From Candidatus Zixiibacteriota bacterium (GTDB taxonomy: Bacteria; Zixibacteria; MSB-5A5; CAIYYT01), in assembly GCA_040235515.1 (NCBI GenBank), contig JBECKX010000063.1, positions 1 through 40,983 on the forward strand: a DNA stretch of 40,983 nucleotides, written 5' to 3'. The notes under the pieces were generated by a model. The model searched no databases. It had not been told where the DNA came from and saw nothing but the letters and a program-made list of their open reading frames with translations. Position 1 is the stretch's first letter. Every line of letters begins with the position of its first letter. The position numbers and the translations under genes are program-made. This document shows, piece by piece, positions 11,774 through 27,417 of the stretch.

Positions 11774-12088
11774 CTACCGATCTCGATTTGAGGGGTTGTA
11801 GGCGAATTCCTTCATGCTCATCGATTCAGGCACGGGGTAGACACCGGCTCCCTGGCAGAGCGGACAGGGGTTCTTATCTTCGAGCCGCACGTTGATGTTG
11901 CCGGTGCCCTGACAGGCAGTGCAGTCATTGCCGGCGGCAGTAAACCCGCGTCCGTTGCAGTAAGTGCAGAGATGCGAGTGGTTTGGTGTCAGGCATCGAT
12001 TGTCGACCCAGCCGCGCCCGCCACACTCGGGGCAAGTTTTGGGATTTCCTTCAGGGTCTGGCGTTGGCCAGTCTTCGCTTTCCGACAT
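11774..12088 (-). CDS. Small DnaJ-type zinc-finger protein (four CxxCxGxG-like motifs)
   Basis: CPECGGRG...CTYCNGRG...CTACQGTG...CPLCQGAG. Good SD (gtGAGGAagcATG). Overlaps the 3' end of the upstream endopeptidase gene by about 37 nt, so it is co-transcribed with the hydrogenase genes. Confidence 0.6.
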   Translation of the reverse strand: MSESEDWPTPDPEGNPKTCPECGGRGWVDNRCLTPNHSHLCTYCNGRGFTAAGNDCTACQGTGNINVRLEDKNPCPLCQGAGVYPVPESMSMKEFAYNPSNRDR

Positions 12089-12569
12089 GCTTCCTCACTT
12101 CCAATTGAGTTCTTATCCAATCATCGATTCGCTTGAGCGCAGCCGGAACTGCCGCGGCCACTTGAGGTGTAAGGGTTTCGGAGAGGGTTTCGATATCCCC
12201 TGCTTCGATGGCGAGCACGTCGATCTGCTCACAGATATTCATCCCCAGTTGTTTGCCGAGTTCCACGGCGACAGGCAGACTGATTTGATGGCTGGTGGTC
12301 AAATTTTTCGACGGCGTAAGAACGCCAAGCTCGAAGAAGTGAATCTCTCCCGGTACACCGTTACAGGTGCAGATTGAGTCGACGATCAGTATGCGTCGTC
12401 GATCCCGCATTAGCTCGAGCAGACGAAATCCCGCCAGCGCGGCAAACGCGATTTCCAGTTCGTCGAGGTTGCCCCAGCGTTGCCGCAGGTGGTCGGCAAT
12501 GACGACTCCAACGCGGTCATCGGTAAGCACCTCGTTTCCGAGGCAGAGAACAAGGACCGGGGCGATCAC
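12051..12569 (-). CDS. NiFe-hydrogenase maturation endopeptidase (HycI/HoxM/FrhD family)
   Basis: MIAPVLVLCLGNEVLTDDRVGVVIADHL...ILIVDSI matches the family N-terminus and metal-binding D/H residues. Lies 18 nt downstream of the large-subunit gene. Confidence 0.8.
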   Translation of the reverse strand: MIAPVLVLCLGNEVLTDDRVGVVIADHLRQRWGNLDELEIAFAALAGFRLLELMRDRRRILIVDSICTCNGVPGEIHFFELGVLTPSKNLTTSHQISLPVAVELGKQLGMNICEQIDVLAIEAGDIETLSETLTPQVAAAVPAALKRIDDWIRTQLEVRKHVGKRRLANARP

Positions 12570-12587
12570 AGGTTCGGTTCTCCCGTT

Positions 12588-14072
12588 CTAGCGATTGCGG
12601 TTTACGGTTTTGACGATCTCTCCAGTGTCGGCATCATGGATAATCAATTCCAGCGGCATACCACCTGGGAGCGTGTGCGTGGCACAGCCAAAGCACGGGT
12701 CGTATGCGCGGAACGCCATTTCGATCCGGTTCAGAACGCCGTCGGTGATCTCGGAACCTTTCGTGATCAATCCTTCGGCGGCCTTTTTGATCGACATCGT
12801 AATCGGAGCGTTGTTGTTGGTTGTCCCTACGATGAGGTTTGCTTCAGTCACGATTCCATTTTGATCGGTCTTATAGTGATGCGTCAGTGTGCCACGTGGT
12901 GCCTCCACGATGCCGACACCTTCTCCCACAATGCCGTCGGGCGGATTCAGGATTTCCTCGGAGGTTAGCTCATCATCCTGCGCCTGTTGGCAGGTGGCCT
13001 CGCAGGCAAACATCAATTCGACCACGCGTGCCCAGTGTGTGGCAAGCGTGGAGTGGACCGGGGTTTGGCCGGTTCGGTCACCAGTGAGTGTCTCGTAGAA
13101 ACGTTCGTATTCGGCCTGCGCCAGCGGCGTAGCCATACCATCAGAGACGTTTAAGCGTGAGAGTGGAGAGGCTTTGTATACGCCTGAATCGACACCATCG
13201 ACGAACCCTTTCCAACCAACTTTTTTCAGGAAAGGATACTTGAGATAGGAATAGGGTTCAACGTGCTCGGCCACATAGTCAAGATAGTCCTTCGGCTCAT
13301 AGAGAGCGTGCTCCTTACCATTCGGGTCGGTGACCCGCACGCGTCCATCATAGAAAGTCACTTTGTTGTTCTCATCTACCAGCCCCATGTTATAGGTTCG
13401 GTGCGCATAGGTGTCTGACAGGATAAGATCGACGTATGCCTGGTTGGCCAGGACGATGTCATTCAGCACCTGGATTGTGAACTGACCGAACTCCACCATC
13501 TCCCTGCCGATCTGGATCATTTCCTCCTGCTCCGCCTTACTGATCCGCTTGGTCAGGCCGCCGGGAACCGAGGTTACCGGGTGCACTTTTTTGCCGCCGA
13601 TGATCTCGATTATCCGTTGTCCGCGTGCGCGCTGTGCGATCACTTTCTTGCCTGCATCGACACCAACTTTAGCGATGACGCCCAGGATATTGCGCTCCGC
13701 CTTGGGGGCATCGGGACCGCAGACAAAATCGGGACCACCCAATGCGAAGAAGTGCGTGGTGTGATCGCCCGCATAGAAGGCGTTGTACATCAGCTCGCGC
13801 AGTTTGCGTGCGGCGGAAGGAATGGTAACGCCATAGACCGCATCAGCGGCCTTGGCCGATGCCATATGGTGCGCATCAGGGCAGACGCCGCAGATACGTG
13901 TCGTGATGCGCGCGAGTTCCTCCACAGGTCTTCCCTGACAGAACTTCTCGAAGCCACGCAGTTCGGGGATCTGGAAGTAACAGTTGGCCAGCGTGCCATC
14001 ATCCTCCACAAAGAGGTGAATCTTGCCATGACCCTCGAGTCGGGTGATTGGATCTATGACTACGCTCTTCAT
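12588..14072 (-). CDS. mvhA: NiFe hydrogenase large subunit, MvhA-like (group 3 type)
   Basis: N-terminal RICGVCPDAHH (RxCGxCxxxH) and C-terminal DPCFGCATH (DPCxxCxxH) Ni-Fe ligand motifs, followed by a 28-aa C-terminal extension, the substrate of the endopeptidase. SD GAGGAGGA. 4-nt overlap with the small-subunit gene. Confidence 0.9.
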   Translation of the reverse strand: MKSVVIDPITRLEGHGKIHLFVEDDGTLANCYFQIPELRGFEKFCQGRPVEELARITTRICGVCPDAHHMASAKAADAVYGVTIPSAARKLRELMYNAFYAGDHTTHFFALGGPDFVCGPDAPKAERNILGVIAKVGVDAGKKVIAQRARGQRIIEIIGGKKVHPVTSVPGGLTKRISKAEQEEMIQIGREMVEFGQFTIQVLNDIVLANQAYVDLILSDTYAHRTYNMGLVDENNKVTFYDGRVRVTDPNGKEHALYEPKDYLDYVAEHVEPYSYLKYPFLKKVGWKGFVDGVDSGVYKASPLSRLNVSDGMATPLAQAEYERFYETLTGDRTGQTPVHSTLATHWARVVELMFACEATCQQAQDDELTSEEILNPPDGIVGEGVGIVEAPRGTLTHHYKTDQNGIVTEANLIVGTTNNNAPITMSIKKAAEGLITKGSEITDGVLNRIEMAFRAYDPCFGCATHTLPGGMPLELIIHDADTGEIVKTVNRNR

Positions 14073-15040
14073 CGGTGAGTCCTCCTCAACATTGAGTCAG
14101 CGAGGCTGAAGCGGTAGAAGGTGCCGGTCGGATCGGGGATGCGGCTGATGATCGCCGCGATCTCGCCGGGGTCGGATGAGTCGATGACGCTCGCGAGGGC
14201 CGAGACCATCTTGGCGCCCTGATCACGTACGTTTGAAGGCAGGCCATAGCAGCCGCGACAGGGGATTCCAGCGCTGACGCACTTCGCGCCACAGCCGGCG
14301 CGGGTAGCGGGACCGAGGCATACGAGCCCCTGTTCCATCAGGCAGATATCCGGGTCGGTGACCTGCTGAAAGGGTCGTTTGAAAGACTTGATCTTTTTGA
14401 CATCCTTCTTTCGTTCGCATTCGTCGCAGCAGGTTTTCTCAGTTGCGCCCAGCACCGTACCCTTCGGTGGCAACGGCTTTCCATTCTTGAGGATATCCAC
14501 CACTGCGTCGATTACCGCGGCGATCTGGTTTGATTGCGGTGGGCATCCCGGAACGATGTAGTCGACGTCAACCACCTGCGGCAGGGTGCGCACGGTGTTC
14601 CAGAACTCGGGAATCGTAATGGTTCCCTCTTCCACTTCCACGCTTGTTTGCGGACGCAGGCCGTTGCCGCCGGCGAGCGAGGGGGACTGCGAGTAGACAT
14701 AGTCGAGGATTGACTCTTTGTCATAGAGATTCGCCAGCGCGGGGATGCAGCCCTCCGAGGCACAACTACCGAAGGCCACAAGCACCACCGATTTCTGTCG
14801 CAGCAGTTGAGCGAGTTCGTAGTTTTCGCTGGTGCGAATGGCGCCATTGAAGAGGGTCAGGGTAATTGAGTTATCTTCCATCGCACGGACATCATCATAC
14901 TTGACATCCATCGCACAGGGCCAGAAGACGACATCGAAGAAGTCGGCGACTTCCAGTATCTTGGTTTCGATGTCAAGAATTGCGATATCGCAACCTCCGC
15001 ACGATGCCGCCCAGTAGACCGCGAGTTTAGGCTTCGACAT
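14069..15040 (-). CDS. mvhG: NiFe hydrogenase small subunit, MvhG-like
   Basis: MSKPKLAVYWAASCGGCDIAILD... with the proximal-cluster Cys pattern and later GCPP. Start chosen at the internal ATG with SD GGGAGG (track start 15067). Confidence 0.85.
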   Translation of the reverse strand: MSKPKLAVYWAASCGGCDIAILDIETKILEVADFFDVVFWPCAMDVKYDDVRAMEDNSITLTLFNGAIRTSENYELAQLLRQKSVVLVAFGSCASEGCIPALANLYDKESILDYVYSQSPSLAGGNGLRPQTSVEVEEGTITIPEFWNTVRTLPQVVDVDYIVPGCPPQSNQIAAVIDAVVDILKNGKPLPPKGTVLGATEKTCCDECERKKDVKKIKSFKRPFQQVTDPDICLMEQGLVCLGPATRAGCGAKCVSAGIPCRGCYGLPSNVRDQGAKMVSALASVIDSSDPGEIAAIISRIPDPTGTFYRFSLADSMLRRTHR

Positions 15041-15503
15041 GGTGTACCTCCCTTGCTTCCGGCTCAAACTTGTAGTCGCGCAATTGCAGGGGGCCCAGCG
15101 CTCGAATCTGTTCGGTAAACTCCGTTACCACCTCCTGGAAGCGGGCACCCTCGGATGCCGACACCCACTCGAGGCGAACGCGTTTGGGATCGATGCCGAA
15201 GTCGGCTACGATTTTCTGGGTCAGAGGCATTCTGCGCATACACTTGTAGTTACCCTCGATGTAATGGCAATCCCCCGGGTGGCAACCACAGACCAGGACG
15301 CCGTCGGCGCCTTTGCTGAAGGCATCCAGGATAAACCCGGGGTCGACCCGTCCGGAGCACATCACCCTGATCGCCATCATGTTCGGGGGGTATTGCAGTC
15401 TGGCCGTTCCTGCAAGATCGGCGCCCGTGTAGGAACACCAGTTGCAGAGAAAGCCAATGATCTTGGGCTCGAATTTCGATTCGGATTTTGCTTCTCCGCT
15501 CAT
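15027..15503 (-). CDS. mvhD: MvhD-like (methyl-viologen-reducing hydrogenase delta) [2Fe-2S] subunit
   Basis: IGFLCNWCSYTGADLAG...IRVMCSGRVDPGFILDAF..GADGVLVCGCHPGDCHY is the MvhD/FlpD signature. Start overlaps the stop of the upstream gene (ATGA). Confidence 0.85.
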   Translation of the reverse strand: MSGEAKSESKFEPKIIGFLCNWCSYTGADLAGTARLQYPPNMMAIRVMCSGRVDPGFILDAFSKGADGVLVCGCHPGDCHYIEGNYKCMRRMPLTQKIVADFGIDPKRVRLEWVSASEGARFQEVVTEFTEQIRALGPLQLRDYKFEPEAREVHHVEA

Positions 15504-17281
15504 GCCAGCATTCCCTCGATTTGAGTGTAGATTTGTTCGTCGGTAAAATGCCTACCGGTGATAGCACCCGCAGGACATGCGGCAACACAGGTGCCACAAG
15601 CTTTGCAGAGTGCCGAATTGACGACGCTGATGCACTTTTCATCATTGAATTCGATTGCATGGTAGGGACAGAGATCATTGCAGATACGACAGCCCGAGCA
15701 GTACTCCTCCTGGATCTCGGCGTAGGTTGCATCCATCATAATTTCACCCTTGCAGAGCAACTTCATCGCCTGAGCAGCGGCAGCGCCACCCTGTGCGACG
15801 GTGTCGGGAATATCCTTTGCGCCCTGGCAGGTACCGGCAAGGAATACTCCTTCGGTGGCGGTTTGAACCGGCCCCAATTTGGGGTGTTGTTCGATGAACC
15901 AGCCATCGGCGCCGGTGGAGATATTGAGCTTTCGCGCCATCTCTTTGGCGTCCGCCCTCGCCTCCAGAGCTGTACAGAGCACGACCATATCCACCGGGAC
16001 TTCGCGGTAACGGCCGATCAGCGTATCCTCGCATTTGATGATCAAATGCCCCTCGTGCTTCTTCTTGTTGCTTGCGGGGACGACTTCGGCGCCTTTCCCG
16101 CGGATGACGTTGCCGCCCTCATCCAGAATCCGCTGGTAGAATTCTTCATACCCTTTGCCGAAGGAGCGCATATCGATGTAGAACTGGTAGACATCCGCTC
16201 CGGTTTTCTCTTTGATAAGATGCGCAAACTTCAACGCATACATGCAACAGACGCGGCTGCAATACTTGTGATGGTCGTCATCGCGACTGCCGACGCAGTG
16301 GAGGATGCCGATGCGTCCGGGAGTCTCACCATTTTCCATCAGAATCTTGCCACCGGTGGAGCCTGCGGCATTGTTCATTCGCTCGAACTCGATCGATGAG
16401 ATCACGTTGGGGAGTGCACCGTAGCCGTATTGTTTGAGCGGAGTTGGGTCGAAGTCAGCAAATCCGGTAGCCATGACAATCGCGCCGACCTCGAACTCCT
16501 CGGTGCTATCCTTCTGTTCGTAGTCGATACACTCCTTTGGGCAGACTTCGGCACAAATCCCGCAGTTGTCGGTCTGGAAATGGATACAGTGCTCGGTATT
16601 GATGTAAGGCACGTTTGGTACGGCCTGGCGGAATGGCATTGTGATCGCCGAGTTCGGACCGAGCTGCAGTTCGCGCAGGTTCACCTTCTTGCCGTCCTGA
16701 TCTTCCAGTCGAATGTGGCCTGTCGGACAGACGGAGGCGCAGGAACCGCACAGAATACAGTCGTCCGAAACCTCGTGAAATGGTGTCGTGACATTGCGCG
16801 CCCCGCCGCGGCTGGCGAATGTGAGAGCACTGGCACCAACGATTTCTTCACAAACCCGGACGCACAATCCGCACAGAATGCAGGAATCCTCTCCGGTTCC
16901 CCAGCGCGGTTCTTCGATACCAAGTTTGCCGGCAAGGTTCCGGAGGACCGGCAGCTCGGCGCAGCGACTCATCAGCAATTCGAGATTCGTGCGGCGAGCG
17001 TTCAAGACACGCGGTGTATCGGTGAGAATCTGCAGACCATCCCAGGCGGGATAGTTGCACGAAGTTACCACCTTCGACCACCCCTTACCGTCGCGAGCTT
17101 CTACCACGCAAACTCTGCAGGCGGCATAGGGGGTGGTGAAGGGAAAGTAGCAGAGAGTTGGAATCTCTATACCGAGAGCTTGAGCAGCCTGCAAGACATA
17201 GGAGCCATCCTCTACTTCGATTTTCTGACCATCGATCTCAATGGTCACGAGAGCTTGTTTATCGCCGTTTTGACTCTTCAT
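15500..17281 (-). CDS. Fusion protein: NuoG/FdhA-type N-terminal 2Fe-2S plus 4Fe-4S ferredoxin module fused to the C-terminal half of HdrA
   Basis: N-terminus VTIEIDGQKIEVEDGSYVLQAAQALGIEIPTLCY...CRVCVV (NuoG-like 2Fe-2S). Several CxxCxxCxxxCP motifs follow, then HdrA-specific ...HCVGSRDDDHHKYCSRVCCMYALKFAHL... and a C-terminal 2x[4Fe-4S] (CSGCRICNDLCP, CKACGTCVAACP). SD AGGAGGAG. Confidence 0.8.
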   Translation of the reverse strand: MKSQNGDKQALVTIEIDGQKIEVEDGSYVLQAAQALGIEIPTLCYFPFTTPYAACRVCVVEARDGKGWSKVVTSCNYPAWDGLQILTDTPRVLNARRTNLELLMSRCAELPVLRNLAGKLGIEEPRWGTGEDSCILCGLCVRVCEEIVGASALTFASRGGARNVTTPFHEVSDDCILCGSCASVCPTGHIRLEDQDGKKVNLRELQLGPNSAITMPFRQAVPNVPYINTEHCIHFQTDNCGICAEVCPKECIDYEQKDSTEEFEVGAIVMATGFADFDPTPLKQYGYGALPNVISSIEFERMNNAAGSTGGKILMENGETPGRIGILHCVGSRDDDHHKYCSRVCCMYALKFAHLIKEKTGADVYQFYIDMRSFGKGYEEFYQRILDEGGNVIRGKGAEVVPASNKKKHEGHLIIKCEDTLIGRYREVPVDMVVLCTALEARADAKEMARKLNISTGADGWFIEQHPKLGPVQTATEGVFLAGTCQGAKDIPDTVAQGGAAAAQAMKLLCKGEIMMDATYAEIQEEYCSGCRICNDLCPYHAIEFNDEKCISVVNSALCKACGTCVAACPAGAITGRHFTDEQIYTQIEGMLA

Positions 17282-17289
17282 GACTCCTC

Positions 17290-19305
17290 CTAGACCGCCG
17301 CCGGGGTTTTCTTACCGGCGCCTGATTGCCACAACTTGCGTGCCTTCTCCTGTAGTGCATCACCGGAGCCGCGCTTGACCCGCTTGATCGAGTCGAAGCG
17401 ACAGATCTGGAAACAGGCGCCGCACTGGATGCAGTCATCCTGCTTGATATAGTGCAGCTGCTTCGGTTCACCGATGATAGCGTTCGTGGGGCACGGTTTG
17501 ACACAGGCGTGGCAGCCGGTGCACGACTCATCGATTGCGTGAGAGACCAATTCCTTGCACACCCCGGCGGGACAGGTTTTGTCCACGACGTGGGCGATAT
17601 ATTCCTGTCTGAAGTAGCGAATCGTCGACAGCACCGGATTGGGTGCGCTCCCACCCAGCTGACAGAGGCTGGTATCGATGATCCCCTGCGACAACAGTTC
17701 GAGTTGTTCGATGTCGGCCAGGGTACCGTGGCCTGCAGAAATCTTGTTGAGGATTTCGAGCATAACCGCAATTCCCTCGCGACACGGGATGCACTTGCCA
17801 CAGCTTTCCTCCTGCAGGAAGCTGAGGAAGTAGCGCGCGACATCGACCATGCAGGAATCTTCATCCATGACGATCATGCCGCCTGACCCCATCATCGAGC
17901 CCGCCCTCGTGAGTTCATCGAAATCGACGGGCAGGTCAAGCAGGCTGCGGGCTTCTTCCTCCTCGCGGATATCCCCGTGCGCGACCAGTGAATCGTGGAT
18001 GTCGCGCTGACTGGTTTCGACGATCAGCGTACCGCCGGAGGGTCCGCCGGTCTGGACCGCTTTAAACCGCTTGTTTCCCGGGACGCCACCACCGATGTCA
18101 TAGAGGATTTCGCGCAGTGTAATTCCCATCGGTACTTCCACCAGGCCGGTGTTGTTTATCTTTCCGGTCAGCGCAAAGACCTTCGTACCCTTTGAGTGTT
18201 CCGTCCCGATCGAAGCAAACCAGTCGGCCCCGTGCTCGATGATCAGCGGGACATTCGCCCAGGTCTCGACATTATTGAGGTTCGAAGGTTTGTCCCAGAG
18301 CCCCTGCTCCACTGTGTGAATATACTTGGCGCGCGGCTCTCCCACTTTGCCCTCGAGTGACGCCATAAGTGCCGTGGACTCACCGCAGACGAAGGCACCG
18401 CCGCCACGCGAGATTTCGATATCAAATGAAAACCCGCTGCCGAGGATGTTATCACCCAGGAGCCCACACTCGTAACAATCAGCGAGTGCCTTGTTGAGGG
18501 TCTTGACGGCGAGAGGGTATTCGTTGCGCACGTAGACAAAGCCCTCGCTTCCGCCAATGGCATAGGCGCCGATGATCATGCCCTCTATGACCGCGTGCGG
18601 ATTGCCCTCGAGCAGGGAACGATCCATGAACGCGCCGGGATCGCCCTCGTCGGCGTTGCAGATGATGTATTTCGGAGTGCCGGGGGCTTTGCGACAACTG
18701 GCCCATTTTCTCCCCGTGAGGAATCCACCACCTCCTCGTCCCCGCAGGCCGGAACGCTTGACCTCCTCGATGATCTGTTCCGGTTGCATCGTGGTCAGCG
18801 CCTTGACGACAGATTCGTAGCCGCCGAGGCGTATGTAATCATCGATCGAGAAGGGGTCCATGTAACCGTTCTTCTCAAAGATAAGGCGCTTCTGTTTCTT
18901 GTAGAATGGTATCTCCACTTCCTGCTGGATGATCTCAGCAGTAGCAGGATCACGATAAAGGAGTTTCTTCACCGTGTGTCCGCCAATGATTGTCTGATCC
19001 CAGATCAGTTTGACATCCGCCGGCTTTACCCGCTGGTAGAAGATTCCACTCGGACGGATGACCACCAGTGGGCCTCGTTCGCAGAAGCCATGACAGCCGG
19101 TGGCTTTGAGTTCGACTTCCTTCGCCATGCCTTCTTTCGCGATCACTTCCTTGAACGCACGGTAAACCGGTTTACAGCCGCAGGCGCGGCAGCCGGTGCC
19201 GGCACAAACTGTGATGGTTGTTTTGTTGGGATCGAAGTTCGTTGTCAGCAGATTCCGCCAAGCCTCAAGCTCCCGGGGAGAGCCGATTCTGAGTGACTTG
19301 TTCAT
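17290..19305 (-). CDS. NuoF-like NADH-binding flavoprotein of the HydB/HndC type, with an extra N-terminal thioredoxin-like 2Fe-2S domain and a C-terminal 2x[4Fe-4S] ferredoxin
   Basis: N-terminus CAGTGCRACGC...CHGFCERGPLVVI. Core GGYESVVKAL...RGRGGGGFLTGRKW (FMN/NADH site) and ESCGKCIPCREG (cluster N3 motif). C-terminus CTGCHACVKPCP and CIQCGACFQICR. Confidence 0.9.
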   Translation of the reverse strand: MNKSLRIGSPRELEAWRNLLTTNFDPNKTTITVCAGTGCRACGCKPVYRAFKEVIAKEGMAKEVELKATGCHGFCERGPLVVIRPSGIFYQRVKPADVKLIWDQTIIGGHTVKKLLYRDPATAEIIQQEVEIPFYKKQKRLIFEKNGYMDPFSIDDYIRLGGYESVVKALTTMQPEQIIEEVKRSGLRGRGGGGFLTGRKWASCRKAPGTPKYIICNADEGDPGAFMDRSLLEGNPHAVIEGMIIGAYAIGGSEGFVYVRNEYPLAVKTLNKALADCYECGLLGDNILGSGFSFDIEISRGGGAFVCGESTALMASLEGKVGEPRAKYIHTVEQGLWDKPSNLNNVETWANVPLIIEHGADWFASIGTEHSKGTKVFALTGKINNTGLVEVPMGITLREILYDIGGGVPGNKRFKAVQTGGPSGGTLIVETSQRDIHDSLVAHGDIREEEEARSLLDLPVDFDELTRAGSMMGSGGMIVMDEDSCMVDVARYFLSFLQEESCGKCIPCREGIAVMLEILNKISAGHGTLADIEQLELLSQGIIDTSLCQLGGSAPNPVLSTIRYFRQEYIAHVVDKTCPAGVCKELVSHAIDESCTGCHACVKPCPTNAIIGEPKQLHYIKQDDCIQCGACFQICRFDSIKRVKRGSGDALQEKARKLWQSGAGKKTPAAV

Positions 19306-19856
19306 AGCTCGTCCTCCTCGTCCGCCTTGAGGTTCCCGGCACGGATATCAGATAGCATCTTGTCGGTTTTGGAGACGGTCATATTGCCATAGTAGACGTC
19401 GTTCGCCGTTACGAGGGGACCAAGCGCACAGGCCCCGAGGCAATTGACGGTCTCGAGGCTTACTTGGCCATCAGGCGTTGTCTCGCCGGCGTTGATACCG
19501 AGTTCGCGTTCGAGTTTGTCGACGATTACTGAAGCCTGGCGCACATGGCACGCGGTCCCGGTGCAGACGCAGACGTGGTTCTTCCCCTTTGGTTTCAGGC
19601 TGAACGCCCGGTAAAAGGTAGCCACTCCATAAATCTGCGCCATTGGCAGATTCATCTCCTCCGACACCTGTCGCAATGCGGCTTCCGGCAAGTAGCGATA
19701 GTGACGCTGGACGTCCTGCAGTATCATGATCAGGGCGGTCGGTTTGGCGCTGTAACGCTTTACGATGCTTTTCACGATAGCCGGCAGGTCGTAGTACTCG
19801 TCCTCTTCATGGCCTGCTGCCTTCGCGGCCACTGGAGTTGTCTTTGTCATTGCCAT
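19302..19856 (-). CDS. NuoE/HydC-like thioredoxin-type [2Fe-2S] subunit
   Basis: ...HVCVCTGTACHVRQ...VNCLGACALGPLV (CxxxxC...CxxxC). True start taken at the ATG (MAMTKTT...) that overlaps the stop of the upstream gene (TGATG) and has SD GGAGGTGG. The 5' part of the track ORF (to 20051) is Arg/Pro-rich alternate-frame junk. Confidence 0.85.
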   Translation of the reverse strand: MAMTKTTPVAAKAAGHEEDEYYDLPAIVKSIVKRYSAKPTALIMILQDVQRHYRYLPEAALRQVSEEMNLPMAQIYGVATFYRAFSLKPKGKNHVCVCTGTACHVRQASVIVDKLERELGINAGETTPDGQVSLETVNCLGACALGPLVTANDVYYGNMTVSKTDKMLSDIRAGNLKADEEDEL

Positions 19857-20818
19857 CAGCTGCCCACCTCCTCGGGAGTAAGTCGTCCTTCCGGCATCGG
19901 CTGAGCCTGAGTCAAGAGCGAGAGGTCTTTCTCCCTTGCCAGTTTCTTTCTGCTGAGGATATCGAACATGCCTCCCTCGCGGAGGACTCTGTCGCCCAGC
20001 ATCAAACGACGCCTTACCGGGGTTGGATGACTGGGACAGGCCTCGTAGCAAGCGCCGCAGCTATTGCAGATTGTCGGGTCGACATAACGCGCCTTCTTCC
20101 TGACGGTGACTTTGAAGTTTCCGATATACCCATCAACCTTCTCCACTTCAGCCCAGGTCATCAGTTTGATGTTCGGATGCTTACCCGCCGACACCATCTT
20201 CGGTGTCAGGATACAGGCGGCGCAATCGAGGGTGGGGAATGTCTTGTCGAATTGCGCCATATGACCACCGATAGAGGCTTCGCGTTCCACCAGTATCACC
20301 TCAAAGCCGGCATCGGCCATTTGCAGTGCGGATTCTATCCCGGCAATTCCGCCCCCGACAACCATCACTCGTTTGGTGATCGGTACGCGACGCATTTCGA
20401 GTGGTTCATGCAGACGCACTCGCGCAACCGCTGCCCGCACCAACGCGATCGCTTTTGCGGTCGCCATTTTCGGGTCAAGGGTAACCCAGCTTACCTGTTC
20501 GCGGATGTTTGCCATCTCGAAGAGGTAGCGATTCAGGTTTGCATGCTCCACGGCGGTCCGGAAGGTTGGCTCATGCATCAGGGGGCTGCACGCGGCAACG
20601 ACCACGCGATTCAGTTTCTGTTCCTTAATGTCCTTCTGGATTAGCTCCTGTCCGGGATCTGAGCACATGAAGCGGTAGTGGCGGGCAACGACGACATCGG
20701 GAAGATTCGATGCCATCTCAGCCACCCTTGCGACATCCACGGTCTTGGCGATGTTGGTGCCACAGTGGCAGACATAAACTCCCACTCGGACCCCACTCTC
20801 ATTCGCTGAGTTGGTCAT
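19856..20818 (-). CDS. hdrA: N-terminal half of HdrA: Cys-cluster N-domain, FAD-binding Rossmann fold and the first 4Fe-4S of the inserted ferredoxin
   Basis: VGVYVCHCGTNIA...VVVAACSP; GxGxxG fold KRVMVVGGGIAGIESALQMADAGFEVILVE; LDCAACILTPK; ICNSCGACYEACP. The protein then terminates. The start overlaps the hdrB stop (ATGA). Confidence 0.8.
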   Translation of the reverse strand: MTNSANESGVRVGVYVCHCGTNIAKTVDVARVAEMASNLPDVVVARHYRFMCSDPGQELIQKDIKEQKLNRVVVAACSPLMHEPTFRTAVEHANLNRYLFEMANIREQVSWVTLDPKMATAKAIALVRAAVARVRLHEPLEMRRVPITKRVMVVGGGIAGIESALQMADAGFEVILVEREASIGGHMAQFDKTFPTLDCAACILTPKMVSAGKHPNIKLMTWAEVEKVDGYIGNFKVTVRKKARYVDPTICNSCGACYEACPSHPTPVRRRLMLGDRVLREGGMFDILSRKKLAREKDLSLLTQAQPMPEGRLTPEEVGS

Positions 20819-21696
20819 ACGTTAGCCACCTCCCCCCGCAGTTTGGCGGAGCGAACCGGAATCAGCAGTCTATCCATTCCCAGTTCCTTTTCCTTTAATC
20901 CCAATGCCAGCCCTACCAGGTGTGTGAAGTAGAGGATCGGGATGTTAAACTTCTGCCCGTAGCGGGCATTGATCTTGTCCTGGTAGCCTTCGAGGTTGAT
21001 CTGGCAGAGAGGACATGCGGTCGCGATCATTTCGGCGTCGTTGTCAGCAGCTGCCTGGAGCAGACCGTTGCAGAGCCTGAGCCCGATCTCCTCATCTGTG
21101 GTCATGAGCATCCCACCACAGCAGCGCACTTTCGGCGGATAATGCACAACCTCAGCTCCGAGAGCTTCAAACAGTTGATCCATGGTTACCGGCTCATCGA
21201 CATCATCGAAGTAACCGTGAGGTCTGACGATCTGGCAGCCATAGTAAGGCGCGACTTTGATACCGGTCAGCGGATTGGTTACGGCTTCCTTTAATGCCTC
21301 AAGACCGAAGTCATTGACGATAATGTCGAGAGGATGTCGCACAGTGACCATGTGATCGTAGCGGAGTTCGGCGGCTGAGAGGGCGGCGTTTATCTTCTCC
21401 CGCTCTTGCGGGTCCCAGGCGATATGACGGTTGGTCTTTTTCAGGATTGTGTAACAACTGCTGCAAGGTGCGCAGATATCCATTCCCATATCCTGCGCCA
21501 GCGCCAGGTTCCGGGCGCTGATGGCGTAGCCGACAATTTTCTTTGCCGACATGTACATCGTCGCGCCGCAGCAATTCCAGTCTTCGATTTCGGTGAGTCC
21601 CAGCCCTAGCTGTTTGAAGACGGCACGTACCGAGATATCATAGGGGCTGCCGGTGTGCTCGAGGCTGCATCCGGGATAGTAGGCGTAGTCAGTCAT
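20815..21696 (-). CDS. hdrB: HdrB-like subunit (two CCG domains)
   Basis: MTDYAYYPGCSLEHTG...WNCCGAT... and a second YYGCQIVRPH...CCGG (CCG cysteine-rich domains). TAATG overlap with hdrC. Confidence 0.9.
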   Translation of the reverse strand: MTDYAYYPGCSLEHTGSPYDISVRAVFKQLGLGLTEIEDWNCCGATMYMSAKKIVGYAISARNLALAQDMGMDICAPCSSCYTILKKTNRHIAWDPQEREKINAALSAAELRYDHMVTVRHPLDIIVNDFGLEALKEAVTNPLTGIKVAPYYGCQIVRPHGYFDDVDEPVTMDQLFEALGAEVVHYPPKVRCCGGMLMTTDEEIGLRLCNGLLQAAADNDAEMIATACPLCQINLEGYQDKINARYGQKFNIPILYFTHLVGLALGLKEKELGMDRLLIPVRSAKLRGEVANV

Positions 21697-22283
21697 TAGT
21701 GCTCTCCAAACTCATTAGCTTTTTTGATTATCGCCTGGACCTGCCTGACGCGTTTGATGCGCTGCGGCAGCAACCCCATGCGTTCGCGCCGCATCAGCTT
21801 CAAGCCGTAACCGGCGTTCTTGAAGAGCTTGGTAAACCCGGAGCGCATGAAGTACTTCACCCCGAGTCCAAGCTCGTAGTTGCGGCCATACTTGTAGATG
21901 TTATCAAGGAACGTCGAGGAGAGCCGATGCACGGGGAAGTTGCGCGGATAGATCCTGCGCTGCATCGCGATTCGTTTGAGGGCATACATCGTATCGGTTA
22001 CCCTGATGTTTTGCGGACAGCGTACCGTGCAGGAGTAGCAGGAGGCACACACCCAGATTGAGCGACTTCTCAGTATCTCCTCGATCCGCCCTGCCCTGAA
22101 CATCGCCACCGTCTGGCGCGGGGTCAGATCCATGAAGTCGGACACCGGACAGGTACCAGTGCAGGTGCCGCACTGGAGGCATTTTTTGATCCTGTAACCG
22201 TCGGGGAATGAGTCTACCTGCTCCCAGAAGGCTTCTTGCAGTTCAGCCTCGGAGGGAGAAACCATAGTCAGGGTATCTGCCAT
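21696..22283 (-). CDS. hdrC: HdrC-like 2x[4Fe-4S] subunit
   Basis: CLQCGTCTGTCP and CASCYSCTVRCP. Confidence 0.85.
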   Translation of the reverse strand: MADTLTMVSPSEAELQEAFWEQVDSFPDGYRIKKCLQCGTCTGTCPVSDFMDLTPRQTVAMFRAGRIEEILRSRSIWVCASCYSCTVRCPQNIRVTDTMYALKRIAMQRRIYPRNFPVHRLSSTFLDNIYKYGRNYELGLGVKYFMRSGFTKLFKNAGYGLKLMRRERMGLLPQRIKRVRQVQAIIKKANEFGEH

Positions 22284-22554
22284 TTTGCCCTCACAAGTCG
22301 TGGATTGGGTCTTTTTCGGGATTGGCTGCGACTCTTGAGAGACAACTGAGGGATGATTCCTCAGTGCCGCATGCCCGGATGTCGCAGCTTTTCAAAGAAG
22401 TTGTGCAACGGTGTCGTTGGATTTTCATTGAGAATATCGACACAAAATACCACTGTCAAGATATTTTTTTCACAAAGTCTATAGAAAATTGTGCAGAATC
22501 GCGCTATTGATGCTCTTTCAGTGCAGCATGTTATGACTATTGTGCTCCCTATTA

Positions 22555-22657: not shown

Positions 22658-23722
22658 CTAACAGATGCGTGGGAGTTGTTCGCCGACAGGGAGATCGACG
22701 AAGCGTTCGGTTCCGAAACGAGTGCGCAAGGTCACAACAGCGCGGTCGCAACTCTCGACGCTGGCGAGGAGTGAGGCATTTTCCCCGAGCGGATGCCTGC
22801 GCATTTGTTCCAATGCGGTGTCGGCAAATTCGGGGGAGACAGCGACAACCATTACCCCTTCATTCGCGACGTGAAGCGGGTCAAATCCAAGCAATTCGCA
22901 GGCGGCAGCCACCGGAGGTGCGATCGGGATCGCTGCTTCAGATATCCGAATCGCAACCTGGGAGGAGGCGGCGAATTCATTCAGAATAGCGGCGATGCCG
23001 CCACGCGTGGCATCTCGCATGGCGTGGATCCCGGCACCGTAGGTCGTCACCAGTGAATTGACGAGCGGGAGGAGTGATGCGGTATCGGATGCGATCGGAG
23101 TTTGGAGCCCGAGGTCCTCGCGCTGGGCGATAATCGCGATGCCATGGCTGGCGATGTTACCACTCACAAGAATCTTGTCCCCTGCCCTGAGCCCCGCGGC
23201 GGAGAAGCAGTAATCATGTTCGATCAGGCCGATTCCCGCCGTGTTAATGAAAATCCTGTCAGCCTTCCCACGATCGACGACCTTCGTGTCCCCAGTGACT
23301 ATGACCACATTTGAGTTTGCGGCTGCGCGACTCATGCTGTGGATGATTCGTTCGAGATCAGAAACCGCCAGCCCCTCTTCAATGATCAAACCTGCGCTGA
23401 GGTATAGCGGCCGGGCACCGCACATACAGAGGTCGTTGATTGTACCGTTGACAGCCAGCTCACCGATATCGCCGCCGGGGAAGAAAATCGGATCGACGAC
23501 ATAGGAATCTGTGGTAAAGGCCAGTCGTGTACCGGCAAGCGTCAAGCGGGCTTGATCCTCCAGAGGTCGCAGCAATTCATTGTCAAAATACTTCAGAAAG
23601 AGTGATTGAATCAGCTCGCCGGTCAGCTTGCCGCCTGAGCCGTGCGCGAGTTGAATGGTTGCATGCCCCGACAATGGGGCGGGACAACTTAACTGGAAGC
23701 TCTTATTCTTCTCTTCACCCAT
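22658..23722 (-). CDS. hypE: HypE, hydrogenase maturation (AIR-synthase-like, carbamoyl dehydratase)
   Basis: Ends with the invariant ...LPRIC C-terminus; PurM-like body. Start taken at the internal ATG (MGEEKNK...), 8 nt into hypD. Confidence 0.9.
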
Positions 23723-24827
23723 TGAAGGCCCACTTCGGTTCCAAGAACTGTTTGTATTTGAAGTAGGCAGCGCACGCACCCTCCGATGATACCATCGTCG
23801 CACCAAGAGGGTGGGCGGGTGTACAACCGGCGCCAAAGGCAGGACAATCGCTTGGTTTTATGCGCCCCTGAAGAACCAGCCCGCTCAAGCAGTCGGCAGG
23901 CTCATCTACGGAGTTGCTGGAGAGCTCAAACTGCTTCTCGGCATCGAATTGCTCATACTCTGTGCGGATCCCAAGGCCGCTGTGAGGAATCTCACCCAAC
24001 CCTCGCCACCTGCGCGAGACCACCCGAAATACCTTCGTAACCGCTTCCTGCGCCGACCGATTCCCCTGACGAGTAACTACGCGGCTGTAACGATTATCAA
24101 CTGTCGCTTTCCCGGTTTCCAGCTGCTTCACTACAGCCAGAATCCCTGCCAGGAGATCGAGGGGTTCGAAGCCGGTAACAACTATCGGCACATTGTAGTG
24201 TGCGGCGATTGGCTCATACGATTCCCAGCCCATCACGGCGCAAACATGTCCAGCCGCGAGATACCCCTGAACACGGTTTGAATCCGAGCTAAGCAGGGCT
24301 GACATTGCCGGAGGCACAAGCACATGAGCCGGCAGCAGAGAGAAGTTCGTGATCCCTTCGCGCTGTGCCTGCAGGACTGCCATTGCAGTCGTTGGGGCGG
24401 TAGTCTCAAACCCCACTGAGAAGAAGACGACTTTCTGCTCCCGATTCTCACGGGCGATGCGGACGGCGTCGAGGGGAGAGAGGACGACTCGTATGTCTGC
24501 ACCTCTCGATTTTGCAGTTAGCAGATCGATCTCCGAACCAGGAACTCTGAGCATATCACCGAAGGAGGTGAATATGACGCCGGGAAGCGCCGCGATTGCG
24601 ATCGCTTTATCGATCATTTCGAGCGGTGTGACACAGACCGGGCATCCGGGACCATGCACGAGTTCGACGCTACCGGCCAGCAATTGATCGATACCGTTGC
24701 GTACGATCGAGTGGGTTTGACCACCACAGACTTCCATAATGACCCACTCCCTGGTCGCACTGCGGCGGATCTCATCCACCAGTGATTTTGCCAGTTCGGC
24801 ATCGCGGAACTCTTCCAGATACTTCAC
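23715..24827 (-). CDS. hypD: HypD, Fe-S scaffold for Fe(CN)2CO assembly
   Basis: [18 protein letters not shown] and FETTAP motifs. 370 aa. Confidence 0.9.
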
Positions 24828-24836
24828 GGCACAACC

Positions 24837-25082
24837 TTACTCTTCCTGCTCGCTCGTCGCCAACGCATACTCACGCCAGAGAGCCAGAGTCTCTTGTGCC
24901 TCGACCTCATCGAGCACGCTGATGGCAAAGCCTGCGTGCACGAGCAGGTATTGACCAGGCACTGCGTCGGGGAGATACTCAAGACACGCTTTCTGGATGC
25001 TGCCGGAGAAATCCACCCGACCCATCTTAAGCCCATGTTCTTCTACTATCTCTATCAGTTTTCCCGGTATTGCCAGGCACAT
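24837..25082 (-). CDS. hypC: HypC/HupF chaperone
   Basis: The conserved N-terminus MCLAIPGKLIEI (essential Cys2) begins at the internal ATG. SD GGAGGAG immediately upstream; the track ORF start (25106) adds 8 unlikely residues. Confidence 0.9.
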   Translation of the reverse strand: MCLAIPGKLIEIVEEHGLKMGRVDFSGSIQKACLEYLPDAVPGQYLLVHAGFAISVLDEVEAQETLALWREYALATSEQEE

Positions 25083-25098
25083 AGTCTCCTCCTTCGGG

Positions 25099-27417
25099 CT
25101 ACACACCCCGGGTCCGCGTTGTTTTGTTTGCGGCGATCAGTGCCTGACCCAATGCAAGTCCGCCATCATTTGTTGGCACTTCCGAATGCACCAGCACCTG
25201 ATAACCACGTGAGCGTAATTGAGCCAGCAGATGCTCGGTAAACAGTTCGTTCTGAAAGACACCGCCACTAAGCGCGATGCATCGTATGCCGGTCTTTTCG
25301 ACGGCCAGTTGTGCGACAGCGGCGAAGAGGTCAGCCAGTTGGAGGTGAAACCAGAATGCCAGCCGTTCTGCCGGAATACCGCTGAGCAGATGGTCCAGCA
25401 GTTCGCGGACGATTGGAATAAAGTCGATCTCCCCGGCGGTTGGAGTAGCGGACGTTGCTGCGGGGAGCGCACCACCCCCGTTGTTCCGAAACCGCAGTGC
25501 TGCCTGTTCCAGGTTGATAGCGGCCTGGGCTTCGAAGCTTGAGTGCAGACCAAATCCTAAGATAGCAGAGATGCCATCGAAGAGTCTGCCACAACTCGAA
25601 GTGAGTGGACGCGCACCGCGCCGCAAAAGGAATTGCTGTATAGTCCTCTTCTCTTCCGCCTTTATCGGCCCGAGCACATCCTGATGCAGAGAGTGGGCAT
25701 CCTCGACTCCTGCGGCTGAGAGGTAACTGATGACCATTTTCCAGGGGTGTTTGATTGCGGACTCGCCACCCGGCATCACGACAGGTTGCAACCAGGCGAA
25801 GCGCTCAAAGTCGCAAGTGTCACCGATCAGCACCTCACCGCCCCAGATCGTCGCATCGCTTCCGTACCCTGTCCCATCCAGAATAATACCCACCGCCGGA
25901 TGGTCGCAGTGATGCTCCGCCAGAACGGAGGCAAGGTGAGCATGATGGTGCTGCACCCGCATCACCGGAAGCACGGCCTGCGCCAGCGCCCAGCGCGTTG
26001 AGAGATAGTCGGGGTGCAAGTCGCAGGCGATCAGCTCCGGTTCAAACTGATGTGTCTTTCTCAGGTGCTCGATGGATTCTTCGAAGAACTGCAGCGCTTT
26101 CGGGTTGTCGAGGTCACCAATGTGTTGCGAGAAGAAGAAGCGATTTCCGCGCAGGTAGCCAATCGTGTTCTTCAGTTCGGCTCCACAGGCAAGAATAGAT
26201 TGTTGATGTTTGCGAATCAGGCGCACCGGCGAGGGAACGAAGCCACGCGCCCGACGCATGACTGATAGCCTCCCGGCGGTACTCATGACGACCGAATCAT
26301 CGCAGCGCTGCAGGATGTCGCGGTCATGGAGCAGGAACGCATCGGCAACATCACCCAGCCGGGAGATAGCCTCCTCGTTGCCGATCGCGATCGGCTCATC
26401 CGAGAGGTTTGCGCTGGTCATTACCAGGGCAATGAAATTGTCCTTAAGCAGCAGATGGTGAAGGGGCGTGTAGGGCAGCATCACTCCATAGCGAGTATTG
26501 TCAAATGCCACCGATTCAGCGATAACGGCATTGTCCTTTCGCCTGAGCAGCATGATCGGCGCGACGGGCGACAGTAACCACTTCAAATCGCCCTCTGACA
26601 CATCGCAAATCTGGTGCACCACCGACAGGTCGGCAACCATGATCGCCAGCGGCTTCTCCGCCCGCAGTTTGCGCTGTCGCAGGCGTAGTACGGCGGCGGC
26701 GTTGGTGGCATCAACTGCCAGGTGGAATCCACCGAGGCCGCGAATCGCCACGATCCGCCCAGCCCTCAGATAAGCGACAGTCTCAGCCAGCGGGTCGAGA
26801 TCAGGTTGAATCGCTCCATCGGTGTACCACGATAGCCGTGGTCCACACGCCGGACACGCCACCGGCTGCGCATGATAGCGGCGGTCCGCGACATTCTCAT
26901 ACTCGGCGCGGCAGATTTCGCACATCTGAAACGCGCTCATCGAAGTGTTCGAACGATCATACGGGACATTATCGACAATCGTGTAGCGTGGACCGCAATT
27001 CGTGCAGTTAGTGAAGGGGTAACGATAACGCCTGTCTGTCGGGTCGAACATCTCGCGCAGACAGTCGGCACAGACGGCGATATCTGCTGAGATCAACGTT
27101 GATACGGCACCGCTGCTGATGCTAGTTGTGATTGAGAAATCGGCATCACCCTTGAGTGGGAGCGAGGTGAGTGTGCTGGTATCGATTTTCGCTAGTGGAG
27201 GCAGTTCTGAGTGGAGCCGTCGACAAAACGACTCAATCTGCGGCACCGCGCCTTCCACCTCGATCAGGACACCTGCAGAGTTGTTGCAGACAAATCCGCT
27301 CAAGTGGAGTGAGGATGCCAACCGGTGAACGAAGGGTCGAAAGCCTACGCCCTGTACGACGCCATCGAGCACCAGCTGTCGCCGAACGCGCATTTCTTTG
27401 TCGTGGAGGGTCACCAT
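25099..27417 (-). CDS. hypF: HypF carbamoyltransferase
   Basis: Acylphosphatase domain VQGVGFRPFVHRLA, two Zn-finger CxxC pairs (CADCLREM...CTNCGPRYTI; CEICRAEY...CPACGPR), then YrdC-like and Kae1-like domains. 772 aa. Confidence 0.9.
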   Translation of the reverse strand: MVTLHDKEMRVRRQLVLDGVVQGVGFRPFVHRLASSLHLSGFVCNNSAGVLIEVEGAVPQIESFCRRLHSELPPLAKIDTSTLTSLPLKGDADFSITTSISSGAVSTLISADIAVCADCLREMFDPTDRRYRYPFTNCTNCGPRYTIVDNVPYDRSNTSMSAFQMCEICRAEYENVADRRYHAQPVACPACGPRLSWYTDGAIQPDLDPLAETVAYLRAGRIVAIRGLGGFHLAVDATNAAAVLRLRQRKLRAEKPLAIMVADLSVVHQICDVSEGDLKWLLSPVAPIMLLRRKDNAVIAESVAFDNTRYGVMLPYTPLHHLLLKDNFIALVMTSANLSDEPIAIGNEEAISRLGDVADAFLLHDRDILQRCDDSVVMSTAGRLSVMRRARGFVPSPVRLIRKHQQSILACGAELKNTIGYLRGNRFFFSQHIGDLDNPKALQFFEESIEHLRKTHQFEPELIACDLHPDYLSTRWALAQAVLPVMRVQHHHAHLASVLAEHHCDHPAVGIILDGTGYGSDATIWGGEVLIGDTCDFERFAWLQPVVMPGGESAIKHPWKMVISYLSAAGVEDAHSLHQDVLGPIKAEEKRTIQQFLLRRGARPLTSSCGRLFDGISAILGFGLHSSFEAQAAINLEQAALRFRNNGGGALPAATSATPTAGEIDFIPIVRELLDHLLSGIPAERLAFWFHLQLADLFAAVAQLAVEKTGIRCIALSGGVFQNELFTEHLLAQLRSRGYQVLVHSEVPTNDGGLALGQALIAANKTTRTRGV

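Follow-up and report, generated by a model that had tools for sequence, protein, structure and literature searches.

Can a HdrA subunit that is encoded by two separate genes still form one electron-bifurcating flavoprotein, and to what is it wired by the NAD(H)-type module that lies between its halves? This question is raised by a 40,983-nt contig of Candidatus Zixiibacteriota bacterium (JBECKX010000063.1, assembly GCA_040235515.1; hereafter the window), in which ten minus-strand open reading frames (ORFs; 22283..12051) encode, in this order, hdrC, hdrB, the N-terminal part of hdrA (hdrA-N), bfuC, bfuB, a bfuA domain fused to the C-terminal part of hdrA (BfuA::HdrA-C), mvhD, mvhG, mvhA and a maturation protease (Table 1). 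The junctions read, in operon order, TAATG, ATGA, TGATG, ATGA, 8-nt gap, ATGA, 14-nt overlap, ATGA and 18-nt gap, and a GGAGG-like (Shine-Dalgarno-like) site lies 5-10 nt ahead of each start codon. An earlier note on this DNA had described the run from hdrC to mvhA as a co-translated operon that builds one HdrA from two polypeptides; its ORF coordinates and all of its junction descriptions were correct on re-check, and the Pfam scan found the expected domains in each ORF of the operon.

HdrA is split inside its inserted ferredoxin domain

The break in HdrA is a clean fission within that domain of the protein and not a gene defect, and the cofactor motifs of HdrA are all retained across the two chains. 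The first chain, HdrA-N, aligns to residues 5-258 of the solved HdrA 5ODC_A (E = 1e-103) and, as had been read from the sequence before, contains the N-terminal Cys domain, the GxGxxG motif and one CxxCxxCxxxCP motif (C251-P262) before it stops; residues 150-190 give Pfam FAD/NAD Rossmann matches (FAD, flavin adenine dinucleotide; NAD, nicotinamide adenine dinucleotide). The C-terminal half was found where it had been placed, in the fusion gene (15500..17281, minus strand, 593 aa), which lies 2.6 kb from hdrA-N: residues 174-592 of its product align to 5ODC_A 245-650 (E = 1e-106), and Pfam gives a weak C-terminal part of Pyr_redox_2 together with the C-terminal dicluster. Three genes tile the NCBIfam HdrA2 profile, which has 777 positions and represents a HdrA::MvhD fusion: HdrA-N covers positions 1-256, fusion residues 204-591 cover 262-640 and MvhD covers 641-774. 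The two HdrA halves follow each other on the profile without gap or overlap, in agreement with the proposal of one HdrA made from two polypeptides. The NCBIfam HdrA/HdrA2 bit scores of 388 and 438 are well under the cut-offs of 1100-1400, so that neither chain qualifies as a canonical single-polypeptide HdrA.

In the fusion protein, C329, C341, C345 and C346 align to C386, C399, C403 and C404 of 5ODC (the HA4 cluster), and K351 aligns to K409, which we take to be the flavin-proximal lysine in methanogen HdrA. An alignment of 20 orthologous fusion proteins (63-74% identity) showed C329/341/345/346, K351, C232/240/243/247, C528-538 and C559-569 to be invariant. All four cysteines of the motif at the end of HdrA-N (C251-C261) were kept in each of the 26 split HdrA-N orthologues extracted, and the trailing proline was replaced in a single one (L028). 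A flavin-proximal lysine has been described as a hallmark of the Hdr-type bifurcating FAD in a preprint on class II benzoyl-CoA reductase (BCRII; 10.64898/2026.04.10.717634).

A preprint citing structure 5ODH describes the FAD domain of HdrA as discontinuous (residues 145-236 and 315-567), with the inserted ferredoxin domain lying between the two segments. Because the FAD domain is interrupted in this way, the fission falls inside the inserted domain; and since each chain carries one FAD-domain segment, both chains must assemble closely. Beyond its cysteine motif, HdrA-N continues into a 58-aa tail (residues 263-320; 19856-20029), for which canonical HdrA has no counterpart. This tail is kept within the clade of the window, with a motif similar to DLTxLTGAQPMPE; in more distant split orthologues it is shorter or differs. 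BfuC or BfuA may be its docking partner.

Four motifs of the CxxCxxCxxxC type surround the break: motif 1 (C251-C261) in HdrA-N, and motifs A (C134-C144), B (C175-C185) and C (C232/240/243/247) in the fusion protein. Motifs A and B are colinear with the dicluster of HydA1 (8A6T_A 144-223) and WorA (9MQX_A), and therefore both belong to BfuA and not to HdrA; the linker and motif C align to the second inserted-domain motif of HdrA (5ODC_A). The parsimonious reading of the motifs is that BfuA would comprise the [2Fe-2S] cluster with motifs A and B, and that the inserted ferredoxin of HdrA would be formed in trans by motif 1 of the first chain and the linker and motif C of the second.

A related gene, P0135 (JGI sample 3300042731, 20.8-kb contig), is unsplit and has neither the N-terminal Cys domain nor the C-terminal ferredoxin domain. 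Its single chain runs in the order N-terminal FAD segment, motif 1, a 35-aa acidic linker, Fer2_4, motifs A and B, linker, motif C and HdrA-C, which supports the picture of a module inserted into HdrA. This gene lies just after Fer4_11 and AFOR genes (BamC/BamB-like) and before a second HdrA-like gene, a context that hints at a Bam-like tungsten enzyme using the same graft.

The grafted module is of the Bfu type

The N-terminus of the fusion protein had previously been taken for a NuoG/FdhA-type 2Fe-2S domain. The 2Fe-2S assignment stands, with Pfam Fer2_4 at residues 10-89, but the domain is not limited to it: a 2x[4Fe-4S] dicluster (Fer4_7) follows at residues 133-188, and residues 12-198 are colinear with WorA 9MQX_A 5-191, which carries the clusters A1, A2 and A4 without A3 (PMC12318220). 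C44/55/58/75, C134/137/140/144 and C175/178/181/185 are invariant in the 20-orthologue alignment. The module is thus a type-2 BfuA N-domain in its entirety: like WorA, it has A1, A2 and A4 and no His-ligated A3. In BfuA domains of this type, A4 is the cluster through which electrons are exchanged with the partner module (PMC9304861; PMC12318220).

The NuoE-like and HydB/HndC-type NuoF-like genes reported between the HdrA halves were recovered by both Pfam domains and structural matches. BfuB matches 7T2R_B (NiFe-HydABCSL, 1e-227), 9MQX_B (WorABCSL, 2e-222) and 8A6T_B (HydABC, 5e-216), as well as 7Q4V_B (HydABC) and NfnABC, with true NuoF far weaker (1e-111 or worse), and it aligns to Thermotoga maritima HydB (7P5H_B, residues 26-641) in one stretch. 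Pfam finds two additions in BfuB, an N-terminal Trx-like 2Fe-2S_thioredx piece and a C-terminal 2x Fer4, and by eye we find CxxxxC...CxxxC at the N-terminus, CxxCxxC...C, CPxxxC and two CxxCxxCxxxC motifs. Such extra N- and C-terminal cluster domains separate bifurcating BfuB from the non-bifurcating NuoF/HoxF, according to a survey of the Bfu family (PMC9304861). The best solved relatives of BfuC are HydC (7P5H_C), WorC (9MQX_C) and the NiFe-Bfu C subunit (7T2R_C), all at about 1e-39.

The sequence features of the Bfu family are accordingly all present, namely the site and cluster set of BfuB, the [2Fe-2S] of BfuC and the A1/A2/A4 set of the BfuA N-domain. By these homologies, the inserted module is a genuine Bfu/HydABC-type core and not a complex-I fragment. 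Enzymes of this family use a third substrate to reduce NAD+ and ferredoxin in a coupled reaction, which is predicted here as well. The earlier proposal that a NAD(H) flavoprotein module is wired into HdrA is borne out by the covalent fusion of BfuA to HdrA-C and, in some lineages, of BfuC to HdrA-N.

Three split-HdrA loci (L019:4796-7957, L024:4785-7955 and L028:4522-7641) encode a NuoF/HydB-like subunit of about 1050 aa. In that of L019, a GltD-like Fer4_20 plus Pyr_redox_2 C-terminus replaces the 2x[4Fe-4S] ferredoxin-binding end (Pfam).

The arrangement is widespread

A word-indexed search found relatives of the fusion protein in at least 120 clusters at 90% identity (579-604 aa, 97-100% query coverage, 63-74% identity), and 14 of the 150 best representatives in a library clustered at 50% identity match from query residue 7-13, that is, with the BfuA part included. 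One genome per GTDB species was then scanned and the best 80 loci were kept; 82 loci were annotated in all, from ORFs and blastp. The BfuA::HdrA-C fusion is present in 38 of these 82 loci, all of them in metagenome-assembled genomes. The adjoining genes are nuoF-like (34 of the 38), mvhD (31), nuoE-like (29), hdrA-N (28), mvhG (21), hdrB (20) and mvhA (19), and contig ends account for most of the missing neighbours. Judged from the record titles, the fusion loci come from Ignavibacteria, Zixibacteria/GN15, Calditrichaeota, Armatimonadetes, Bryobacterales/Terriglobia (Acidobacteriota), Aminicenantes, Anaerolineae, Desulfobacterales, Myxococcales, Planctomycetaceae (Planctomycetes), Verrucomicrobiota, and Thermoplasmata or other archaea. 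The gene order recurs in many phyla at 50-77% protein identity, with HdrA-N 56-75% identical, and a 4.34-Mb contig (L001) carries the identical ten-gene order, as expected of a real, co-translated operon.

Besides the order of the window, three further variants were found. In eight relatives (L009, L012, L014, L015, L016, L018, L030 and L073; e.g., L014:1669-5134), a 3.6-kb set consisting of HATPase_c, a [FeFe]-hydrogenase-like sensor (Fe_hyd_lg_C plus an FeS domain), PHP and a second HATPase_c lies between hdrA-N and nuoE, sometimes with DRTGG-like proteins. Similar gene sets, with putative H2-sensing and regulatory functions, accompany hydABC operons. In five loci (archaea, Myxococcales, Planctomycetaceae and Desulfobacterales) HdrA-N is fused to BfuC. 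A further variant, common in Desulfobacterales and Anaerolineae, has mvhD without mvhGA, often with an HdrL-like gene and hdrCB behind it. Besides these, P0131 is a BfuA::HdrA-C::MvhD fusion, and in P0124 and P0128 BfuA::HdrA-C continues into another HdrA-like unit. Such independent fusions of neighbouring genes are good evidence that the products form one complex.

In a Fidelibacterota chromosome (CP070787.1; L031:7560-9497), the HdrA-C gene opens with only the dicluster part of BfuA (residues 99-168) and is followed by mvhDGA; nuoE and nuoF were not detected upstream of it. This gene may be an intermediate or reduced form. In a neighbour-joining tree of the HdrA-C regions, built without support values, split, unsplit and HdrL-type sequences are interleaved.

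A frameshift or pseudogene was considered and rejected on the DNA of the window itself: downstream of hdrA-N, where the bfuC ATG overlaps the hdrA-N stop as TGATG, the sequence encodes a full-length NuoE-like protein (Pfam 1-144 of 145), and therefore no indel can rejoin the HdrA halves. More generally, it is hardly credible that the gene is simply broken, that it is a pseudogene in decay or an artefact of assembly, or that Bfu and Hdr/Mvh are independent enzymes sharing an operon. Nothing beyond the unusual layout itself speaks for these explanations, and they conflict with the fact that dozens of independently assembled genomes of different phyla, Mb-scale contigs included, share this split site and gene order, with the identity level of HdrA-N across these assemblies, and with its conserved motif 1 cysteines and clade-wide tail; independence is contradicted by the covalent bond between BfuA and HdrA-C. 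The fusions together with the conserved tail rule out both pseudogene and assembly error. The layout is not rare in nature; it is widespread, conserved and apparently uncharacterised.

The hydrogenase and disulfide reductase subunits

MvhA matches 5ODC_F (5e-117), 9SW2_F (3e-111) and, as a close second, the NiFe-Bfu large subunit 7T2R_D (8e-111). VhuA (1e-117), VhuG and VhuD are the best NCBIfam models of MvhA, MvhG and MvhD, respectively. From these matches and the gene order, the enzyme belongs to group 3c (Mvh/Vhu), with subunits closest to MvhA/MvhG, MvhD present and hdrABC adjacent. HdrB matches the methanogen HdrB chains 8RVU_b and 5ODC_B over its full length (1e-48 to 1e-42) and keeps both C-x(n)-CC-x(n)-C-xx-C motifs (CCG; non-cubane clusters) complete, and HdrC matches the NCBIfam CoB_CoM_SS_C and HdrC models with scores under the curated cut-offs.

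With these subunits at hand, the complex could also be mainly a NADH/ferredoxin-linked (confurcating) [NiFe] hydrogenase that, like NiFe-HydABCSL, serves fermentative H2 evolution or uptake, with HdrA chiefly a wire between Mvh and Bfu and HdrBC a side branch or redox-regulatory valve. The near-equal closeness of MvhA to 7T2R_D and to MvhA, and the sensor-like gene set between hdrA-N and nuoE in eight relatives, are in line with this, as is the fact that the host lineages are mostly predicted fermenters. We nevertheless regard this explanation as quite unlikely, for the hallmarks of HdrA bifurcation and both non-cubane motifs of HdrB are strictly conserved, which speaks for both disulfide chemistry and FAD bifurcation being used, and the biochemically characterised group 3c enzymes all oxidise H2 (PMC11216029).

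At several cysteine positions of the window, relatives carry an in-frame TGA, namely at C202 of HdrA-N (the hdrA genes of L036, L052, L057, L025 and L029), C64 of MvhA (L040 and L041) and C74 of MvhD (L036 and L052). These relatives probably use selenocysteine at the three positions, at which the window has cysteine throughout.

Comparison with known systems

The MvhAGD-HdrABC complex of hydrogenotrophic methanogens (5ODC, 8RVU and 9SW2) has the same subunits, colinear in the order HdrC, HdrB, HdrA, MvhD, MvhG and MvhA, and the window keeps all of its cluster and FAD motifs, with E-values to the solved chains of 1e-42 to 1e-117. In contrast to that complex, HdrA is made of two polypeptides here, and a BfuA domain plus bfuC and bfuB sit at the position of the inserted ferredoxin domain. 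Since the host does not belong to the methanogens, CoM-S-S-CoB is not known to be its disulfide. With the type-2 Bfu enzymes WorABCSL (9MQX) and NiFe-HydABCSL (7T2R), the operon shares the domains of BfuB, the [2Fe-2S] of BfuC and the A1/A2/A4 set of BfuA as in WorA. However, BfuA is not a free subunit but is fused into HdrA, and the module for the third substrate would itself be a bifurcating HdrABC-Mvh. The Bfu survey names many partner modules, among them Bam-Bfu with a HdrA-type module, and the accessible main text does not name a Hdr/Mvh class, nor does the accessible supplementary text hold Hdr/Mvh entries (PMC9304861).

Among characterised enzymes, class II benzoyl-CoA reductase (BamBCDEFGHI) comes closest. 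In it, a HydBC/Bfu-type BamGHI and a HdrA-type bifurcating BamE are joined by the MvhD-like adaptor BamF and the HdrBC/HdrD-like BamD; it is the only characterised complex with such a pairing. The window differs in having no AOR-type tungsten subunit (BamB/BamC) and in adding a [NiFe] hydrogenase, and its HdrA is split, where BamE is a fused HdrA dimer. Pfam detected no AFOR domain in the operon genes or the larger neighbouring ORFs scanned, and the operon is accordingly not assigned to the Bam enzymes.

HdrL of Desulfobacterium autotrophicum and its relatives carries a pyridine-nucleotide module at the same inserted-ferredoxin site, and mvhD follows its gene. There, the insert is a GltD/NfnB-like Fer4_20 plus Pyr_redox_2 in a single chain, whereas the window has a BfuA domain and separate BfuBC. 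The GltD/NfnB-like insert is absent from both HdrA halves of the window (Pfam, with L060 as positive control), which sets them apart from HdrL. HdrL-type HdrA proteins of about 1140 aa are encoded at L060:5736-9170, L079:2828-6256 and L058:3840-7220 and also in L065, L068 and L080. The inserted-ferredoxin site thus looks like a recurrent socket for pyridine-nucleotide modules. In FlxABCD-HdrABC of Desulfovibrio, an NADH-linked module and a MvhD-like subunit are coupled to HdrABC, with proposed bifurcation. By description, that system is set apart by its NAD(H) flavoprotein FlxA, which is not of the NuoF/HydB type of BfuB, by an intact HdrA and by having no known hydrogenase.

A split HdrA with a grafted BfuA has no description in the searchable literature, and an earlier description elsewhere is possible. 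The nearest mention is that of nuoEFG-mvhD-hdrA clusters in Desulfotignum phosphitoxidans, whose arrangement the genome paper does not analyse; the genome paper on Desulfobacterium autotrophicum likewise mentions Hdr domains over colocalised genes without analysing the arrangement. The earlier view of the enzyme as unusual and possibly new therefore holds with respect to the literature searched, but not with respect to its occurrence, given the number of clusters in which the fusion is found, nor entirely with respect to its design, for which BCRII is a precedent that combines Bfu with HdrA.

Proposed electron flow

Two bifurcation modules, the FAD of HdrA and the FMN/Fe-S site of BfuBC (FMN, flavin mononucleotide), are encoded as one physically linked assembly, and the inserted ferredoxin domain of HdrA is the point of the graft; we consider both conclusions firm. 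Our preferred reading, to which we assign an even chance, is that HdrBC, two-chain HdrA, BfuABC and MvhDGA form one soluble complex with two different bifurcation sites that may work as follows. The inserted ferredoxin domain, assembled in trans from motif 1 at the end of HdrA-N and from the linker and second motif in the fusion protein, would by homology bring the outer cluster A4 of BfuA next to the low-potential exit clusters of HdrA. MvhAG would oxidise H2, and the electrons would pass via MvhD to the FAD of HdrA and be bifurcated there. The high-potential electron would go through HdrC and HdrB to a disulfide, and the low-potential electron would leave through the inserted ferredoxin domain and the BfuA wire (A4, A2, A1) to BfuBC and not to free ferredoxin. 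At the FMN/Fe-S site of BfuBC, NAD+ and ferredoxin would then be reduced, so that four H2 would yield two reduced disulfides, one NADH and two reduced ferredoxins. Disulfide reduction would in this way pay for making both reduced carriers, NADH and ferredoxin, from H2, perhaps even when the H2 pressure is low; the whole electron chain may be reversible. This mechanism, including the direction of electron flow, is the least certain part of our explanation, and the H2/NADH/ferredoxin/disulfide chemistry proposed in the earlier note likewise remains a prediction.

The route through the inserted ferredoxin domain is preferred because this domain is the low-potential exit in BCRII, as in HdrA. In the HdrA-like subunit of BCRII, it serves as the low-potential output, mirroring HdrA, and the donors enter through the C-terminal ferredoxin domain and the MvhD-like adaptor (10.64898/2026.04.10.717634). 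We also count in favour of this reading the domain content and structure matches, the tiling of one HdrA2 profile by three genes, the retention of the motif 1 cysteines in the split orthologues, the use of A4 by type-2 BfuA domains, the invariance of the lysine at the K409 position and of all cluster cysteines in the 20 orthologues, the fusions seen in HdrA-N::BfuC, P0135 and P0131, the translational coupling and the synteny.

Several points weigh against it. The BfuA homologue of BCRII, BamI, feeds the C-terminal ferredoxin domain, that is, the input side (10.64898/2026.04.10.717634), and thus the covalent BfuA link is no proof of the electron path. In several relatives the module has no mvhGA beside it, which means that H2 cannot be the donor throughout the family. 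NADH and reduced ferredoxin as net products are more dissipative than the canonical Mvh-Hdr reaction, and the disulfide substrate in these bacteria is only putative. As to the structure, phmmer can also align motif B, the second BfuA motif, to motif 1 of HdrA, so the pairing of the motifs is based on parsimony, and an AlphaFold2 monomer model of the 593-aa fusion protein, made from the 20-sequence alignment, has a mean predicted local distance difference test score of 57 and is confident only in the BfuA N-domain.

Some of these points would fit a complex in which BfuABC is a confurcating input as in BCRII. NADH and reduced ferredoxin would be oxidised at BfuBC, mid-potential electrons would pass via BfuA to the FAD of HdrA, in parallel to or instead of H2/Mvh, and bifurcation at the FAD would send them to HdrBC, for the disulfide, and to an acceptor of very low potential. 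BamGHI has been reduced by NADH and reduced ferredoxin in experiments, and it feeds the HdrA-like BamE (10.64898/2026.04.10.717634); the unsplit P0135 adjoins AFOR/Fer4_11 genes that resemble BamB/BamC; and in the many relatives with mvhD but without mvhGA, Bfu would be the only obvious donor. On the other hand, if ferredoxin were the low-potential acceptor, it would merely cycle, leaving NADH and the disulfide as the net reactants, and bifurcation would not be needed. Moreover, the operon encodes no BamB-type low-potential enzyme, and the graft of BfuA sits on the inserted ferredoxin domain, which in Hdr as well as in BCRII is the output side (10.64898/2026.04.10.717634). We therefore consider an input role of BfuABC unlikely, and retain the reading in which the BfuA wire carries low-potential electrons out of HdrA.

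Operon and neighbouring genes

The features of the locus are listed in Table 1. The most likely start of mvhG is at 15040. The HycI-type protease gene lies in the same place in L001, L003, L004, L010 and L011. A hypA-sized ORF (27896-28513) has no Pfam match, and scanning the window against Rfam and for tRNA genes gave no hits. Two large signalling proteins are encoded on the plus strand, one of 1441 aa (1087-5412) with Ser/Thr-kinase, TPR, GAF, sigma-54 AAA+ activator and HTH_8 domains, and one of 943 aa (28798-31629) with Ser/Thr-kinase and TPR domains.

Table 1. Features of the hdr-bfu-mvh locus in the window.
Feature	Position	Strand	Description
hypE, hypD, hypC, hypF, hypB	22658..28119	-	[NiFe] maturation, directly upstream; Pfam AIRS/AIRS_C, HypD, HupF_HypC, HypF domains, cobW/HypB
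Sigma-70-like promoter match	22431..22459	-	about 150 nt upstream of hdrC; 10/12 consensus positions, consensus match only
hdrC	21696..22283	-	195 aa; 2x[4Fe-4S] HDR subunit; Pfam Fer4_8/Fer4_17; two CxxCxxCxxxC motifs
hdrB	20815..21696	-	293 aa; catalytic disulfide-reducing subunit; Pfam CCG, two stretches, E = 5e-25
hdrA-N	19856..20818	-	320 aa; N-terminal [4Fe-4S] domain, first FAD-domain segment, first inserted-ferredoxin Cys motif, 58-aa tail
bfuC (nuoE/hydC-like)	19302..19856	-	184 aa; [2Fe-2S] subunit; Pfam 2Fe-2S_thioredx, E = 1.5e-51
bfuB (nuoF/hydB-like)	17290..19305	-	671 aa; FMN/NAD(H) subunit; Pfam Complex1_51K, SLBB, NADH_4Fe-4S
BfuA-type N-domain of the fusion protein (residues 1-203)	16673..17281	-	[2Fe-2S] A1 and two [4Fe-4S] (A2, A4), no His-ligated A3
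HdrA-C part of the fusion protein (residues 204-593)	15500..16672	-	inserted-ferredoxin second half, second FAD-domain segment, C-terminal 2x[4Fe-4S]
mvhD	15027..15503	-	158 aa; [2Fe-2S] adaptor; Pfam FlpD, E = 6.5e-57; NCBIfam VhuD match
mvhG	14069..15040	-	323 aa from ATG at 15040; [NiFe] small subunit; Pfam Oxidored_q6; NCBIfam VhuG, E = 4e-65
mvhA	12588..14072	-	494 aa; [NiFe] large subunit, Mvh/Vhu (group 3c) type
HycI-type hydrogenase maturation endopeptidase	12051..12569	-	Pfam HycI

Significance

Two modules for flavin-based electron bifurcation in one supercomplex were previously unreported, according to the BCRII preprint of 2026 (10.64898/2026.04.10.717634). The present locus points to a second and far more widespread family that pairs the two module types of BCRII, here with a hydrogenase in addition. 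The points of fission and fusion (the split after motif 1, the BfuA graft, HdrA-N::BfuC and HdrA-C::MvhD) define the module boundaries of HdrA and provide a testable wiring diagram, and the NAD(H) module offers a direct link to bacterial Mvh/Hdr systems, whose substrates and role outside methanogens are putative. At about 10 kb and with hyp genes next to them, the operons are compact and lend themselves to heterologous expression and cryo-electron microscopy.

A more far-reaching proposal, which we put forward as tentative and rather doubtful, is that of hydrogenase-linked tandem bifurcation, in which the FAD of HdrA and the BfuBC site would work in series through the two-chain ferredoxin domain, in either direction. 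If it were true, diverse non-methanogenic bacteria and archaea could use trace H2 to make NADH and reduced ferredoxin, or run the reaction backwards, and the widespread bacterial group 3c hydrogenases would have a physiological role. The inserted ferredoxin domain of HdrA would then be a general plug-in socket for partner modules.

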